Shown: positions 52,729-59,479, numbered from the stretch's first letter. The stretch: DNA of 64,000 bases from Escherichia coli (GCF_044324875.1 NZ_CP172185.1), one strand, 5' to 3'. Notes: generated by a model not told the origin, from the letters alone. Translations and numbers: made by a program.

Positions 52729-53592
52729 TTAGTCTATTTTTTTTGAAATAATGGCGTTGATCTGTTTATCAGTAAATTGACCTTGGGCTTTGGCTTTATT
52801 TAACCAGAGCAACGCTTCTTCTTTATTTATGCCATTTCCATCAAGCCCCCAGGCATAAATTTGTCCTAAAGTAATTTGTGCAATAGGTAAGTTTTGAGTA
52901 GCAGCTTTCTCAAACCAGTATTTAGCCTGTCGTATATCTTTGGGAACGCCCTGACCATTAAAAAAAAGTGTCCCATAATTATATTGGCCGAGTCGCTGAC
53001 CCTTTTCTGCCGCTATTTTTAAGTGAGGGATAGCTTCAGCATACTTATTCTCTTGAATTCCGATAATCCCTAAGTTTGCATGTGCAATAGGATTGTCCTT
53101 CTGTACTGCTTTCTGAAGCCAATACTTGGCTTTGTTAATGTTTTGGAATTCCTGTGGGCCAAATTGATAAATATTCGCACAGTTTATTTGAGCTTGTTCA
53201 TTCCCTTTTTCTGCCGCTTTCTCATACCAGTATATCGCAATACGATAGTTAGGCCCCGTATTATCATATCCGTAATGATAAATCTGTCCTAAGTAAAATT
53301 CAGCTTCATCATAATTTTGCTTTGCTGCAAGGTTGAGCCAATAAAATGCTTTGTTTATATCCTTCACTGAAGGACTTTCAGATAGACCATTCAGGTATAT
53401 GAGTCCCATCACCGTTTGTGAGGCTTTATCGCCATGTTGAGCCTTGGCAATGATATCCTGCAGTTTATTTCGTGATTCCTTCGTAATATTATTTAATACT
53501 TGCTCGGGAATATCAAAATGTGAAGGGGTATCTTCGGCGCCTATTGCAGTGGCGCTAATTATTAAAATTATTGATGCAATCGTTATTCTCAT
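52729..53592 (-). CDS. Sel1-repeat (TPR-like) secreted protein
   Basis: 287 aa; signal peptide; repeated Sel1-like units (LGxxYxxG..A..WYxKAA); gene is visibly AT-rich. Confidence 0.75.
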   Translation of the reverse strand: MRITIASIILIISATAIGAEDTPSHFDIPEQVLNNITKESRNKLQDIIAKAQHGDKASQTVMGLIYLNGLSESPSVKDINKAFYWLNLAAKQNYDEAEFYLGQIYHYGYDNTGPNYRIAIYWYEKAAEKGNEQAQINCANIYQFGPQEFQNINKAKYWLQKAVQKDNPIAHANLGIIGIQENKYAEAIPHLKIAAEKGQRLGQYNYGTLFFNGQGVPKDIRQAKYWFEKAATQNLPIAQITLGQIYAWGLDGNGINKEEALLWLNKAKAQGQFTDKQINAIISKKID

Positions 53593-53696: not shown

Positions 53697-56258
53697 TTAT
53701 ACCAGACTCTTCAACCGATAAATCCACTCCAGCGCCTGGCGCGGAGTGAGTGAATCCGGGTCGAGATTTTCCAGCGCTTCCACCGCGGGCGAGGTTTCTT
53801 CCGGCACTGAAAGCAGCGACATCTGCGTGCCATCGACCTGTGTCGCGGCGGCATTCGGCGAAATGCTCTCCAGCTCGCGCAGTTTTTGCCGCGCACGCTT
53901 GATCACCTCTTTCGGCACACCTGCCAGTGCAGCAACCGCCAGGCCGTAGCTTTTGCTCGCCGCGCCATCCTGCACGCTGTGCATAAAGGCAATGGTGTCG
54001 CCGTGCTCCAGTGCATCGAGATGCACGTTGGCGACGCCTTCCATTTTCTCCGGTAACTGGGTCAGCTCGAAATAGTGGGTAGCAAACAACGTCAACGCTT
54101 TAATCTTATTCGCCAGATTTTCCGCGCACGCCCACGCCAGCGACAGACCATCGTAAGTGGACGTCCCGCGCCCAATCTCATCCATCAGCACCAGACTGTA
54201 CTCGGTGGCGTTATGCAGAATATTGGCGGTTTCGGTCATCTCCACCATAAAGGTTGAACGCCCGGATGCCAGATCATCCGCTGCTCCTACGCGCGTGAAG
54301 ATACGGTCGATCGGCCCAATCTCGACTTTTTGCGCCGGTACGTAGCTGCCGATATACGCCATCAGCGCAATCAACGCGGTCTGGCGCATATAGGTACTTT
54401 TACCGCCCATATTCGGACCGGTAATGATCAACATGCGACGCTGCGGCGACAGGTTCAGCGGGTTGGCGATAAATGGCTCGTTCAGTACCTGTTCAACCAC
54501 CGGATGGCGGCCTTCGGTGATGCGAATACCCGGTTTATCAATGAAGGTCGGGCAGGTGTAGTTCAGGGTATAGGCCCGTTCCGCCAGGTTCACCAGCACG
54601 TCGAGTTCCGCTAGCGCGCTCGCGCTCTGTTGCAACGCTTCCAGATGCGGCAACAGCAGGTCGAACAACTCTTCATAAAGCTGTTTTTCCAGTGCCAGTG
54701 CTTTGCCTTTTGAAGTGAGAACTTTGTCTTCGTACTCTTTTAGCTCTGGAATAATGTAGCGCTCGGCGTTTTTCAGCGTCTGGCGACGCATGTAATTGAT
54801 GGGTGCCAGATGGCTTTGTCCACGGCTGATCTGAATGTAATAACCATGAACCGCGTTAAAGCCGACTTTCAGCGTGTCCAGGCCAGTACGTTCACGCTCG
54901 CGGACTTCCAGACGCTCCAGATAATCGGTCGCGCCGTCAGCCAGCGCGCGCCACTCATCCAGCTCTTCGTTATAGCCCGATGCGATAACACCACCGTCGC
55001 GTACCAGCACTGGCGGTGTTTCGATGATTGCCCGCTCCAGCAGATCGCGCAGCTCGGCAAACTCGCCCATTTTTTCACGCAGCGCCTGTACCGGAGCGCT
55101 ATCGACATTTTCTAATTGCGCACGCAGCTCCGGCAATTGCTGGAAAGCGTGACGCATACGGGCCAGATCGCGCGGGCGAGCAGTTCGTAAAGCCAGACGC
55201 GCCAGAATACGTTCCAGGTCTCCGACCTGACGCAGCACCGGCTGTAGCCCGGCGGTGAAATCCTGCAATGCGCCAATAGTTTGCTGGCGCTCAAGTAACA
55301 CGCGGGTATCGCGCACTGGCATATGCAGCCAGCGTTTCAGCATACGACTACCCATCGGCGTTACAGTGCAGTCGAGCACTGAAGCCAGCGTATTTTCCGC
55401 ACCGCCCGCCAGGTTCTGGGTAATTTCCAGGTTACGACGCGTCGCGGAATCCATAATGATGCTGTCCTGCTCACGTTCCATAGTGATAGAACGAATATGC
55501 GGCAGAGTCGTACGTTGGGTATCTTTCGCATACTGCAACAGACAACCGGCAGCACAAAGTCCGCGCGGCGCGTTCTCGACGCCAAAACCGACCAGATCGC
55601 GGGTGCCAAATTGCAGATTCAACTGCTGGCGCGCGGTGTCGATTTCAAACTCCCACAGCGGACGACGGCGCAGACCGCGACGACCTTCAATCAGCGACAT
55701 CTCAGCAAAATCTTCTGCATATAGCAGTTCCGCCGGATTAGTGCGTTGCAGTTCTGCCGCCATCGTTTCCCGGTCAGCCGGTTCGCTCAGGCGAAAACGA
55801 CCGGAACTGATATCCAGCGTCGCGTAGCCGAAACCTTTACTGTCCTGCCAGATAGCCGCCAGCAGATTGTCCTGGCGCTCTTGTAACAGGGCTTCATCGC
55901 TGATGGTGCCTGGCGTAACGATACGCACAACTTTGCGCTCAACTGGACCTTTGCTGGTCGCCGGATCGCCAATTTGTTCGCAGATGGCAACGGACTCGCC
56001 CTGATTCACCAGTTTGGCGAGGTAGTTTTCCACCGCATGGTAGGGGATCCCCGCCATCGGGATCGGCTCTCCCGCCGAAGCACCGCGTTTGGTCAGTGAA
56101 ATATCCAGCAGTTGCGACGCGCGTTTTGCGTCGTCATAAAACAGTTCATAAAAATCACCCATCCGGTAAAACAGCAGGATCTCGGGATGCTGGGCTTTCA
56201 GCTTGAGATATTGCTGCATCATGGGCGTATGGGCATCGAAATTTTCTATTGCACTCAT
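53697..56258 (-). CDS. mutS: DNA mismatch repair protein MutS
   Basis: 853 aa; Walker [10 protein letters not shown]. Confidence 0.97.
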
Positions 56259-56504
56259 GGGGTTATGTCCGGTTCCCTGATATTAAATGGGGTGTGATGG
56301 TTTTTATTTTCGTTGTAATCACATAAGGCGCACATGATACCGGAGTTAATCATTTCAGGGGAAGAAGCGAACGGCGAGTTCTTGATGGTGATTCCGGGAA
56401 AGATGCTGTTTTGCAGCTTTTGCGTGATGCTTATGAAGCAAGTACGCAAAATTGTATCGGTTGGCTAACCCTTCTTCTTTAGAGTCATAGTGCCCTTTAA
56501 GATT

Positions 56505-56527
56505 AAGTTGTAATATAAATGCATCTT
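56505..56527. promoter_or_regulatory. Candidate NsrR operator (AAGTTGTAATA-T-AAATGCATCTT) upstream of ygbA
   Basis: Right half matches the NsrR half-site AAATGCATCTT exactly, left half 8/11; 18 bp upstream of the ygbA ATG. Confidence 0.5.
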
Positions 56528-56544
56528 AATGAGATGGAGGCAGC

Positions 56545-56889
56545 ATGTCCGGCAAGCGTATCTCTCGTGAAAAACTGACGATTAAAAAAATGATCGATCT
56601 TTATCAAGCGAAATGCCCGCAGGCGTCAGCGGAGCCGGAGCATTATGAGGCGTTGTTTACTTACGCGCAAAAGCGGCTGGATAAATGTGTGTTCGGCGAA
56701 GAGAAACCAGCCTGTAAGCAGTGTCCGGTGCACTGTTACCAGCCTGCAAAGCGTGAAGAGATGAAACAGATTATGCGTTGGGCTGGGCCGCGAATGCTGT
56801 GGCGTCATCCGATCTTAACCGTGCGTCATCTCATCGATGACAAGCGTCCGGTGCCGGAGTTGCCAGAAAAATATCGTCCAAAGAAATAA
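56545..56889 (+). CDS. ygbA: Nitrosative-stress-induced protein YgbA
   Basis: 114 aa, Cys-rich; RBS GGAGG; position next to mutS. Confidence 0.85.
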   Translation: MSGKRISREKLTIKKMIDLYQAKCPQASAEPEHYEALFTYAQKRLDKCVFGEEKPACKQCPVHCYQPAKREEMKQIMRWAGPRMLWRHPILTVRHLIDDKRPVPELPEKYRPKK

Positions 56890-56927
56890 ATCTGCCGGAG
56901 AGCCATACTCTCCGGCAAATAAGGCGC

Positions 56928-57356
56928 TTACGCTTTGGTGGCAATCAGGATGGCTGATGCTTTGATCAATGCAATAACGCGCGAGCCAGTGGTGAGTTTC
57001 ATTTCATCCTGACTTTCATTTGTTACCACTGCCACAATTTCAAAACCCGCATCCGTTTTGATATGGACAGTGGCGTTCACTGCTCCTTCGGTGATTGTCG
57101 ACACGCTGCCAGCAAACTGGTTGCGAGCAGAGAATTTCAGTCCACAGTCTTCCGTTGCCAGCGTTACCCACGGGGCTTTAATCAGGGCAATCGCTTCTTT
57201 CCCTTTCGCCAGACCCAGCGCTTGCTGGCTGCTGTGAGTCACAATTGCCACCAGCTTTGCACCACCTGCCAGCGTCAGTTCTACTTCATCATTCACAGCG
57301 CCCATTGCTACTGCGCTAACTGTTCCGGTTAATTGATTTCTTGCTGAAACTGCCAT
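56928..57356 (-). CDS. Molybdate-binding Mop protein (tandem TOBE domains)
   Basis: ORF 56928..57395; start set at ATG 57356 (MAVSARNQLTGTVS) after AAGGAGG; two repeated TOBE units (ARNQL/F.G.V..I..GAVN..V). Confidence 0.8.
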   Translation of the reverse strand: MAVSARNQLTGTVSAVAMGAVNDEVELTLAGGAKLVAIVTHSSQQALGLAKGKEAIALIKAPWVTLATEDCGLKFSARNQFAGSVSTITEGAVNATVHIKTDAGFEIVAVVTNESQDEMKLTTGSRVIALIKASAILIATKA

Positions 57357-57400
57357 ACTGCCTCCTTTCATTGAATGTTGATCGAGTATAACCACATCTG

Positions 57401-59479
57401 TTAAATCAATGCCGATTTATCAATTCCCAGTCGCTTCATCCGTGACAGCAGAGTCGTGCGTTTCAGCCCCAGACGTTGCGCAGCGCCTTTAGGCCCGGCA
57501 ACCACGCCGTTGGTTTCTTTCAGCACGCGAACAATCAACTGATATTCATCTTCGCCCTCCTGGGCGACAACCGTTGCGGCAGGCGGCGTTTCAGGCTCCG
57601 GTAAAGCAATATCAGGCAATGACAGCTGCAGCACGTTGCCGCGTGTTAGCAATACCGCGCGCTCAATGACGTTTTCCAGTTCGCGTACGTTACCCGGCCA
57701 CTCCATGTTGCTCAAGGTGCGCAGCGTCTCGGCAGGAATGCTGTCGATATTGCGCCCCAGACGACGGGCAATTTTGAAGGTAAAGGCTTTCGCCAGCAGC
57801 GGAATATCTTCCGGACGCTCGCGTAGTGGCGGCAGGTGAATCGGGAATACGTTCAGGCGGTAATAGAGATCGCTACGGAACTCACGGTCGGCGACCATTT
57901 TTTTCAGATCGCGGTTAGTTGCGGCGATTAGACGCACGTCCGTCTGAATGATTTTGTTGCTGCCGAGACGTTCAAACTCCTGTTCCTGTAATACACGCAG
58001 CAACTTCGGCTGTAACTCCAGTGGCATATCGCCCACTTCGTCGAGGAACAGGGAGCTTTTATCCGCCAGTTCAAAACGACCGATACGCTGGGCGCTGGCA
58101 CCGGTAAAAGCCCCACGCTCATGACCAAACAGATCGCTCTCCAGCAATCCGGCAGGCATCGCCGCGCAGTTCATTTTGACCATGCGGCGATTATTACGCC
58201 CACTGAGATTATGGATAGCACGGGCAATCAGCTCTTTACCCGTGCCAGTTTCACCGAGGATCAGCACGGTACTGTCACTTTGCGCCACCATTTCAACTTG
58301 TTTAAGCACGCTGTACATGGCTTCGCTGCGGCCAATAATCTCGCCAAATTCACTATCAACATTGTTGAGCTGCTCGGTCAGGGCGAGGTTTTCATCAACC
58401 AGCCGTTCTTTCAGACGATGGATTTCCTGATAGGCGAGGGCGTTATCGACAGCGATTGCCACACGTTCGGCAATCTGGCGCAGTAAATTCAGATTGGTAG
58501 TGGTAAACACTTTCTCTTCGCATTGCGCCAGTTTCAGCACGCCCAGCATGGTGTCGCCAGACATCAGCGGTAACAGGCACAAGGTTTGAATCTGGTTGCC
58601 CCAGGTGTCGAACAACATGCGTTCATAGGGGGCTAAATCGTCCCGCTCGTGGAGATTAATCAGCAGCATCTCTTTGCTTTTGAACACGCGTTCGGTGAGG
58701 GTTCCGGCTTCATCGACTTCGCTCTGTTCGTGGGCGGGATGCTGTTTATCAAGATAGTGAGTGGAGTAGATGTTGAGTTTGTTTTTACGGTGGCTGCGTA
58801 AGACGATGCTGATATCGTCAATGTCGAAGTAGTAATGGATTTCTTTGGCGACTTCGCTGACCAGTTCGTCCATATCCAGGCGGGAAAGCACCGCGTTGGT
58901 AATGGCAACCAGGATGCGGAAGTTATCGCGCTCCCGGCATAACAACTCATAGTCGACATTATTGACGACGCGGCTCTGGATTTGTTCGGTGACGACAGAA
59001 ACGATCTGCGTAAATGTTTGCAGACGATTGAACTCTTTTTCGCTCCAGGGGCGATCGTCATAACGAATAAATTCACAGCCACCAAAAATATGCCCTTCCG
59101 CCGCCAGTGGCATCAGGCAATAGTGACCAAATTTGGGGTATAGCCCACCTGCGGCCAGCTGCGGCCAGGTTTCACAAAATTCTTCGTAACTGCAATGCAG
59201 CGTATCAGGGCGCGACAAAATGCTGCGTACCGGACCGTGTGCCAGAACAGTTTCGTCTTCATATTTAATGGGGGTGTCTTTTTCACGCGATGCGTAATAA
59301 GACGCACGTTGAGTCTGCGCTTGCCACAACACAATAGCCGCGTTGTCGGCGAGCGCAGAACGCTTTACCAGTTGCGAAAGAGCCTCACACAGCGAGGCCA
59401 GATCGGGCTGCTGCAATAGTGTCCGAGTGATGTCGAACAACCCTTGTTGTCCGAGATCACTCATCGGTGTATATGACAT
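57401..59479 (-). CDS. fhlA: Formate hydrogenlyase transcriptional activator FhlA (sigma54-dependent)
   Basis: ORF 57401..59515; start set at MSYTPMSDL (692 aa); GAF domains, AAA+ sigma54-interaction domain (GETGTGKE, GAFTGA), C-terminal HTH. Confidence 0.95.
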   Translation of the reverse strand: MSYTPMSDLGQQGLFDITRTLLQQPDLASLCEALSQLVKRSALADNAAIVLWQAQTQRASYYASREKDTPIKYEDETVLAHGPVRSILSRPDTLHCSYEEFCETWPQLAAGGLYPKFGHYCLMPLAAEGHIFGGCEFIRYDDRPWSEKEFNRLQTFTQIVSVVTEQIQSRVVNNVDYELLCRERDNFRILVAITNAVLSRLDMDELVSEVAKEIHYYFDIDDISIVLRSHRKNKLNIYSTHYLDKQHPAHEQSEVDEAGTLTERVFKSKEMLLINLHERDDLAPYERMLFDTWGNQIQTLCLLPLMSGDTMLGVLKLAQCEEKVFTTTNLNLLRQIAERVAIAVDNALAYQEIHRLKERLVDENLALTEQLNNVDSEFGEIIGRSEAMYSVLKQVEMVAQSDSTVLILGETGTGKELIARAIHNLSGRNNRRMVKMNCAAMPAGLLESDLFGHERGAFTGASAQRIGRFELADKSSLFLDEVGDMPLELQPKLLRVLQEQEFERLGSNKIIQTDVRLIAATNRDLKKMVADREFRSDLYYRLNVFPIHLPPLRERPEDIPLLAKAFTFKIARRLGRNIDSIPAETLRTLSNMEWPGNVRELENVIERAVLLTRGNVLQLSLPDIALPEPETPPAATVVAQEGEDEYQLIVRVLKETNGVVAGPKGAAQRLGLKRTTLLSRMKRLGIDKSALI

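Follow-up and report, generated by a model that had tools for sequence, protein, structure and literature searches.

A predicted ModG-type molbindin gene behind fhlA in Enterobacteriaceae, deleted in the Escherichia coli lineage of K-12, B, and O157:H7

Analysis of a 64,000-nucleotide (nt) stretch of Escherichia coli DNA (GCF_044324875.1, NZ_CP172185.1; the whole stretch is referred to below as the window) revealed a small gene directly downstream of fhlA, the gene for the transcriptional activator of formate hydrogenlyase (FHL). We conclude with high confidence that its product is a ModG-type molbindin, i.e., a standalone di-Mop protein predicted to bind molybdate, and we propose that in Escherichia it is expressed together with genes for FHL maturation and regulation; for this reading as a whole, a ModG-type molbindin with FHL-linked expression, we estimate a probability of roughly 0.6. 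The gene and the elements needed to follow its identification are as follows.

56928..57356, minus strand: coding sequence of the predicted di-Mop (ModG-type) molbindin; ATG at 57356..57354, stop codon TAA at 56930..56928; 142 amino acids; RefSeq WP_000301062.1
57361..57367, minus strand: Shine-Dalgarno sequence AAGGAGG, 4 nt 5' of the ATG; every genus examined has a GGAGG/GGAG core in this position
57401..59479, minus strand: open reading frame of fhlA, the upstream neighbor

The 142-amino-acid protein matches the Pfam TOBE family (PF03459) twice, at residues 4-66 (E = 1.6e-17) and 76-137 (E = 6.2e-16), and scores 142 bits against the NCBIfam model TIGR00638 "Mop," for which the curated cutoff is 55; no Pfam or NCBIfam domain was found in it besides these two Mop/TOBE units. 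The repeats extend over approximately residues 1-70 and 73-142, and the two halves are identical at 30 of 70 positions. In comparisons with proteins of known structure, ModG of Azotobacter vinelandii (1h9j) gave an E value of 5e-33 at 48% identity and was collinear over residues 1-140; the di-Mop sensor domain of E. coli ModE came second (E = 1.2e-15, 34-36% identity), and the single-domain molbindins (Tub, MopII, and Sporomusa Mop) each aligned to one half. A preliminary description of this DNA had pointed to a Mop-type protein of 142 amino acids with two TOBE units, encoded 44 bp downstream of fhlA on the same strand behind its own AAGGAGG; the open reading frame and the Pfam matches bear this out, and the homology to ModG sharpens the identification to a ModG-type di-Mop molbindin.

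Structure prediction points the same way. An AlphaFold2 monomer model built on 69 diverse di-Mop sequences had a predicted local distance difference test (pLDDT) score of 96.7 and a predicted template modeling (pTM) score of 0.88, and its best Foldseek matches were the ModG structures 1h9j, 1h9k, and 1h9m (template modeling [TM] score 0.94-0.95, root-mean-square deviation 1.4 Å). Next came the ModE di-Mop domain (TM score 0.87-0.90), and Tub and MopII were also matched. The fold predicted by the model is an OB-like five-stranded beta-barrel.

The residues expected to hold the ligand are present in both repeats. In Tub of Eubacterium limosum, the buried type-2 oxyanion site consists of Ser4, Arg6, Ser40, Lys60, and Ala61 and the axial type-1 site of Ala20-Val21-Asn22, and these sites are described as resembling those of ModG, Mop, and ModE (PMC11980592). 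Under the same numbering, repeat 1 of the window protein has S4, R6, T40, K60, and A61 (type-2) and A20-V21-N22 (type-1), and repeat 2 has their counterparts at +72, namely, S76, R78, T112, K132, and A133 (type-2) and A92-V93-N94 (type-1). All 16 ligand positions are identical between the window protein and ModG; 14 of the 16 are invariant across 45 distinct orthologues, with slight variation at V21/V93 and A133, and among the 69 diverse di-Mop proteins the ligand residues are invariant or at least 90% conserved.

Profile searches also delimit what the protein is not. The ModE profile (NCBIfam NF007957) was matched only at positions 124-261 of 263, with 88 bits against a cutoff of 369, and the ModC and WtpC profiles were matched only over their C-terminal ~65 positions, with 26-49 bits against cutoffs of 285-440; by Pfam and NCBIfam profiles, the 142-amino-acid protein has no ATP-binding cassette (ABC) ATPase domain and no N-terminal winged-helix DNA-binding domain. 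Since both the DNA-binding half of ModE and the ABC ATPase are missing, we assign the protein to the ModG-type molbindins and neither to the regulators nor to the transporters.

Comparison with the known molbindin systems supports this placement and shows where the window gene departs from them. With ModG (1h9j/1h9k/1h9m) it shares a length of ~140 amino acids, an architecture of two tandem Mop/TOBE domains only, of the cytoplasmic type, and the SARN, GAVN, T-x-x-S, and KA motifs in both repeats. The setting is different: A. vinelandii modG lies in the mod (molybdate transport) region, is controlled by ModE, and serves nitrogenase (for the ModE control and the mod-region setting, Mouncey et al. 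1996, by its title as cited in PMC9542535), whereas the window gene follows fhlA and the hyp genes in nondiazotrophic enterics. The C-terminal di-Mop part of ModE (1h9s, 1o7l, 1b9m) has the same double-barrel fold, and its first repeat carries the same molybdate-binding motifs; however, ModE has an N-terminal DNA-binding domain that the window protein lacks, and its second repeat is degenerate, without the SARN and KA ligands, whereas the window protein is complete in both repeats. Each repeat aligns to the ~70-amino-acid chains of Mop/MopII (Clostridium pasteurianum, 1gug; Sporomusa ovata, 1fr3) and Tub (9beb), with E values of 2e-9 to 3e-5 and TM scores to the target of 0.84-0.91, and the ligand numbering is shared (S4, R6, A20-V21-N22, S/T40, K60, and A61). 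Those one-domain chains form homohexamers, whereas the window protein has two domains fused per chain, so that a trimer of it would be the equivalent of the molbindin hexamer. The TOBE tail of ModC/WtpC shares the TOBE fold with weak similarity (E = 1e-12 to 1e-13; TM score 0.76 for 3d31), but the ATPase domain of these proteins has no counterpart here.

None of the names given to this protein in databases or in print describes a ModG-type molbindin correctly. RefSeq calls it "TOBE domain-containing protein" or "molybdopterin-binding protein" in E. coli carriers, and other database names are "transporter," "molybdenum-pterin-binding protein," and "molybdate transport system regulatory protein." The label "transporter" is a misnomer because the ATPase domain is missing; "modE" and "molybdate transport system regulatory protein" are wrong because there is no DNA-binding domain, the ModE score is below the cutoff, and both repeats are complete. 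The name "modE" was used in a paper on the evolution of Salmonella pathogenicity island 1, which describes the fhlA-mutS interval as a hotspot of gene gain and loss (PMC7232297). Our literature search turned up no functional study of the gene, none pairing "TOBE domain" with fhlA, and none naming WP_000301062, and a search of the ModG/molbindin literature turned up only work on A. vinelandii and E. limosum. The novelty implied in the preliminary description therefore stands only in part: the gene is conserved and already annotated in RefSeq, and what is new relative to the literature searched is that it is a ModG orthologue, that its position at the end of hyp-fhlA is conserved across Enterobacteriaceae, and that it was cleanly deleted in the lineage of K-12, B, and O157:H7. 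PGAP writes "flhA" for fhlA in every record that we examined.

Conservation indicates that the open reading frame is a real gene under strong purifying selection. All 50 orthologues retrieved (45 distinct) are 142 amino acids long and free of indels, and 58 of the 142 positions are invariant among the 45 distinct sequences. The ratio of nonsynonymous to synonymous substitution rates (dN/dS) is 0.03-0.12 in comparisons with E. albertii, Citrobacter, Klebsiella, Kluyvera, Enterobacter, Kosakonia, and Edwardsiella, and dS grows with the distance between genera. The protein is 91-95% identical to its Citrobacter orthologues, at least as high as FhlA (89-91%), and the GC content of the gene, 0.51-0.52, matches that of its flanks. 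Window FhlA is itself 99-100% identical to RefSeq FhlA of S88 and of K-12-like and O157 genomes. Orthologues from other genera all begin at M-[AST]-[VI]-SARNQ behind GGAGG. A 155-amino-acid version beginning at GTG 57395, found in some GenBank records (e.g., P0277), was rejected, as the extension is not conserved. That the gene is missing from most E. coli strains and is truncated by IS1 in one of them might suggest a chance or decaying, untranslated reading frame, but the low dN/dS, the length fixed at 142 amino acids in 45 distinct orthologues, the conserved Shine-Dalgarno sequence, the two intact domains, and the intactness of the gene in nearly all E. coli genomes that carry it (1,889 of 1,892) refute this, and we regard the probability of such a remnant as practically negligible.

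The gene is unevenly distributed in E. coli. It was found in 1,892 of the 5,426 complete genomes surveyed, always in a single copy and always on the chromosome, and those 1,889 intact copies extend over at least 80% of its length. The carriers S88 and 042, which we take to belong to phylogroups B2 and D, respectively, encode the identical protein, WP_000301062.1, and the gene order of the window is that of strain 042 (rpoS, a MarR-family regulator gene, hydroxyarylic acid decarboxylase genes BCD, pphB, a tetratricopeptide repeat [TPR]/Sel1 gene, mutS, ygbA, the di-Mop gene, fhlA, and hypE). Genomes without the gene include a K-12-like O16:H48 strain, BL21(DE3), and O157:H7, in agreement with the preliminary description, which knew of no gene at this position in K-12. 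The match in gene-less genomes is 835 bp, versus 1,301 bp in genomes with the gene, and is uniform across all gene-less genomes listed. A full match to a 151-bp probe over the K-12 junction was obtained from 3,505 genomes, so that 5,394 of the 5,426 have one or the other of the two alleles. The segment concerned and the gene on its far side are as follows.

56917..57396, no strand assigned: segment swapped for about 6 nt (TTTGCA) in K-12, BL21, and O157:H7, by three-way alignment
56545..56889, plus strand: ygbA, the convergent downstream neighbor; 114 amino acids here versus 117 in K-12

The swapped segment takes the coding sequence, the Shine-Dalgarno sequence, and the leader, up to one base past the fhlA stop codon, and the junction is identical in K-12 and O157:H7. 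Because the gene also lies behind fhlA in outgroups and in other genera, we conclude that it is ancestral in Enterobacteriaceae, that the K-12 state is a deletion, and that it probably arose by one loss of ~470-480 bp in the E. coli lineage of K-12, B, and O157:H7. Recent acquisition by some E. coli strains was considered and rejected: E. albertii, Escherichia sp., Citrobacter, Klebsiella, Kluyvera, Enterobacter, and others have the gene at this very site, its dS scales with distance, and its GC content equals that of the flanks.

The gene-less allele is not merely the window allele minus the gene, as ygbA has a different 3' end, with an 8-nt indel. The window (56880..56920) and the K-12-like allele (locus L002, 1985..2040) are also unlike in the middle of the terminator hairpin, and the K-12-type hairpin (…CCTGTCCGGCATACT…) is, judged by eye, nearer to that of Citrobacter amalonaticus (locus L012) than the window's hairpin is. 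These differences at the junction suggest either an old allele or recombination there. A separate rearrangement was seen in E. coli FDAARGOS_1285 (NZ_CP070152.1; locus L004, 1100..3130), where a 5' part of the di-Mop gene survives, annotated as a pseudogene, and IS1A stands between it and nlpD; rpoS, pphB, mutS, and ygbA are missing at this locus, and the strain would be deficient in rpoS and mutS unless these genes sit elsewhere.

The preliminary description had suggested looking in other genomes for a gene between fhlA and ygbA; beyond the E. coli carriers, this search placed fhlA directly upstream of the gene in 36 of 49 species loci, from Escherichia, Citrobacter, Pseudocitrobacter, Klebsiella, Raoultella, Kluyvera, Enterobacter, Pluralibacter, Yokenella, Lelliottia, and Kosakonia. 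Within Escherichia, the gene also occurs in E. albertii, Escherichia sp. MOD1-EC7003 (a clade strain), and E. fergusonii. In most genera, 36-56 nt separate fhlA from the gene, and the longest spacer is 101 nt. In Phytobacter, hypE is followed by the gene and fhlA is not adjacent, and in Raoultella sp. BIGb0138 and Enterobacter sp. BIGb0383 the gene follows phosphotransferase system (PTS) genes. The neighbors of standalone and plasmid-borne copies are unrelated (an ABC sugar-type transporter with a DeoR regulator, IS3, an Ada-type methyltransferase, a permease, dapA/bcp, and an aldehyde dehydrogenase), and no hint of a molybdenum enzyme was found among the neighbors of plasmid-borne, standalone, or Salmonella-island copies.

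Two of these settings deserve description in their own right. Some serovars of Salmonella enterica have an 87%-identical copy away from fhlA (loci L054-L056, 1..6200), in an island with a fimbrial usher/chaperone pair, a DUF6429 gene, and IS66 TnpB; this copy keeps the leader, with GGTTATACT and AAAGGAGGCAGT 5' of the ATG, so gene and leader can move as a unit. In the hypE-adjacent copies of Phytobacter (loci L037 and L049, 5920-5942), a palindrome, cTATACCCAT-gataagaaa-ATGGGTATAg, lies ~60-80 nt 5' of the ATG, and variants of it are present in locus L042 and in the Klebsiella pneumoniae plasmid copy (locus L057; Klebsiella plasmid pCAV1344-250). The palindrome is a candidate operator; its spacing does not fit a ModE box.

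The signals around the gene bear on how it is expressed.

57357..57400, minus strand: 44-nt spacer from the fhlA stop codon to the ATG; no terminator-like or sigma-70-like site in a scan; folding z score of -0.06 versus shuffles
56890..56920, minus strand: intrinsic terminator with a U-rich tail; 14 base pairs, GC-rich, tail TTATTTCTTT; shared with the convergent ygbA
57385..57390, minus strand: -10-like hexamer TATACT, 34 nt 5' of the ATG; suggestive of a possible own promoter

Read-through cotranscription with fhlA is likely in Escherichia, since transcription leaving fhlA would meet no terminator until it had passed the gene, where a strong one stands (minimum free energy, -25.4 kcal/mol; z score, -4.7; equaled by none of 200 shuffles). 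In K-12, a related hairpin stands directly 3' of fhlA, which fits a gene lying inside a transcription unit that ends at that terminator. The cotranscription put forward in the preliminary description is thus consistent with the sequence, from which we infer it. Three promoters serve the hyp-fhlA unit of K-12: one before hypA that depends on FhlA/formate, one inside hypA that depends on FNR, and a weak one of fhlA.

A promoter of the di-Mop gene's own is possible. TATACT is found at -34 in Escherichia, in three Citrobacter-group genomes, and in Pseudocitrobacter; Kluyvera has it at -46, and the Salmonella island copy, which is not beside fhlA, at -35. A promoter scan covering the spacer and the 3'-terminal part of fhlA detected no sigma-70 promoter, TATACT has no acceptable -35 element, and inspection of the spacer by eye, with no tool run, found no GG-N10-GC of the sigma-54 type. 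Enrichment of 5-mers across genera barely exceeded that in shuffles (12 of 30, with at most 11 in any shuffle), and common descent confounds it. The apparent "GTATAA" of Raoultella, Yokenella, and others consists of the last fhlA codons and the stop codon.

By analogy with ModG, three chains would form a pseudohexamer with two axial and six interfacial oxyanion sites, taking up to eight molybdate (or tungstate) ions; the ModG trimer holds eight molybdates (PMC11980592), and the conserved interface ligands are compatible with a ModG-like trimer, short of proving one. Such an assembly may buffer or store molybdate in the cytoplasm for molybdenum cofactor (Moco) synthesis, as proposed from the same analogy, and would probably bind tungstate too. 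In Escherichia, going by the arrangement of the locus, the gene would be the last cistron of the hyp-fhlA transcription unit, and the protein would be made under anaerobic, formate-inducing conditions, when the molybdo-selenoenzyme FDH-H is built; a weak promoter of its own may add to this expression. The protein would be helpful rather than essential.

The functional link to FHL proposed in the preliminary description is plausible but weak, and the data support at most coexpression with the FHL maturation and regulation genes, not a dedicated partnership. In its favor, FDH-H is a molybdoenzyme, and maximal expression of fdhF and hyc depends on molybdate together with ModE and MoeA (PMC3149613 and, cited there, Hasona 1998 and Rosentel 1995); adjacency to fhlA has been kept over at least 10 genera in a plastic locus, and the Phytobacter gene still lies behind hypE though fhlA is not adjacent. 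A series of observations weighs against it. The gene is missing from about 65% of complete E. coli genomes, including that of K-12, which has normal molybdate-dependent FHL without it (PMC3149613), so any contribution to FHL is dispensable under laboratory conditions. Lone orthologues (69-89% identity) in Serratia, Cedecea, and Edwardsiella, on Pantoea and Klebsiella plasmids, and in the Salmonella island stand in unrelated contexts, and the protein therefore works without FhlA as a neighbor. The conserved TATACT hints at independent transcription, and by our own reading of the alignment Lelliottia has a terminator-like hairpin between fhlA and the gene; cotranscription is therefore not universal. 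Unlike A. vinelandii modG, the gene adjoins no mod genes (its neighbors are fhlA/hyp and ygbA) and has no ModE box: no TATAT-N7-TAYAT with at most one mismatch was found within or near 56,900-57,700, nor upstream of 13 standalone orthologues. An Rfam search of 56200..57800 found neither a Moco riboswitch nor any other family at E ≤ 1, which weakens the FHL link further.

Several of these points are what would be expected if the protein were a general housekeeping buffer for molybdate or tungstate, expressed from its own promoter, whose place beside fhlA is a historical accident with no specific FHL connection, and we consider this possible. A spacer of 36-101 nt leaves little room for insertions and might by itself have kept the two genes together; orthologues stand alone in unrelated contexts, the gene persists without an adjacent fhlA in Phytobacter, Raoultella sp. 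BIGb0138, and Enterobacter sp. BIGb0383, TATACT travels with it into the Salmonella island, Lelliottia has the hairpin after fhlA, and most E. coli strains have lost the gene without a known FHL defect. Accident is harder to reconcile with an adjacency that at least 10 genera retain at a locus described as a gain-and-loss hotspot (PMC7232297), with the lack of a terminator after fhlA and of a detectable full promoter in Escherichia, or with the Phytobacter gene still following the hyp operon.

A more specific role than coexpression seems improbable. A dedicated role in the FHL regulon, with the protein serving not only as a store but as a molybdate sensor or chaperone in contact with FhlA, ModE, or MoeA, is unlikely; if it were so, wild-type Enterobacteriaceae would use this component to tie hyc/fdhF expression or the maturation of FDH-H to molybdate, and all K-12-based studies would have missed it, since K-12 deleted the gene. 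The purely regulatory version, in which the free di-Mop protein signals by contact to FhlA, ModE, or MoeA and tunes hyc/fdhF transcription, is likewise unlikely. Its full-length homology to the ModE sensor domain (E = 1.2e-15; TM score 0.87-0.90), its place next to the FHL activator gene, and the need of hyc/fdhF expression for molybdate, ModE, and MoeA (PMC3149613) would suit such a sensor, but it has no DNA-binding domain, is nearer to the storage protein ModG (48%) than to ModE (34-36%), and has the full ligand set in both repeats, as expected of a high-capacity binder, where repeat 2 of ModE is degenerate; K-12, moreover, controls hyc by molybdate without the gene, and standalone copies occur in other contexts. 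Very unlikely, in our judgment, is a protein that binds mainly tungstate ("TudG"-like), sequestering tungstate to shield molybdoenzyme synthesis from this antagonist or storing tungsten. Molbindins bind both anions, the PDB holds tungstate complexes of the ModE di-Mop domain and MopII, and the TudG/ModG architecture occurs in more tungsten-using than molybdenum-using gut species (PMC11980592). Against this, no tungsten transporter or tungstoenzyme gene lies near the gene in the window or the loci compared, and sequence alone cannot tell molybdenum from tungsten. No physiological use of tungsten is known for E. coli. The ModG-type molbindin coexpressed with the hyp-fhlA genes remains our preferred account.

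Elsewhere in the window, a 287-amino-acid Sel1/TPR-repeat protein is encoded between pphB and mutS (52729..53592, minus strand). It has an apparent N-terminal signal-like hydrophobic segment and four significant Pfam Sel1 repeats, and only 181 of the 5,426 complete E. coli genomes have it, 042 among them, always at ≥99% identity; S88 does not.

The studies of molybdate control of FHL that we consulted (PMC3149613 and those cited there) were done in E. coli K-12 and B strains. Both are among the approximately two-thirds of E. coli that have deleted the gene, and the background studied is thus one without this component; most other Enterobacteriaceae, as well as E. coli S88 and 042, carry a ModG-type binder at the end of the hyp-fhlA unit. 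The gain is incremental, because the type of protein, its fold, and its ligand chemistry are well known, and the finding corrects the inconsistent database names of the protein. If the proposed buffering for FDH-H or other molybdoenzymes is true, possession of the gene could alter how these bacteria cope with molybdenum scarcity or with tungstate in the gut or urinary tract.

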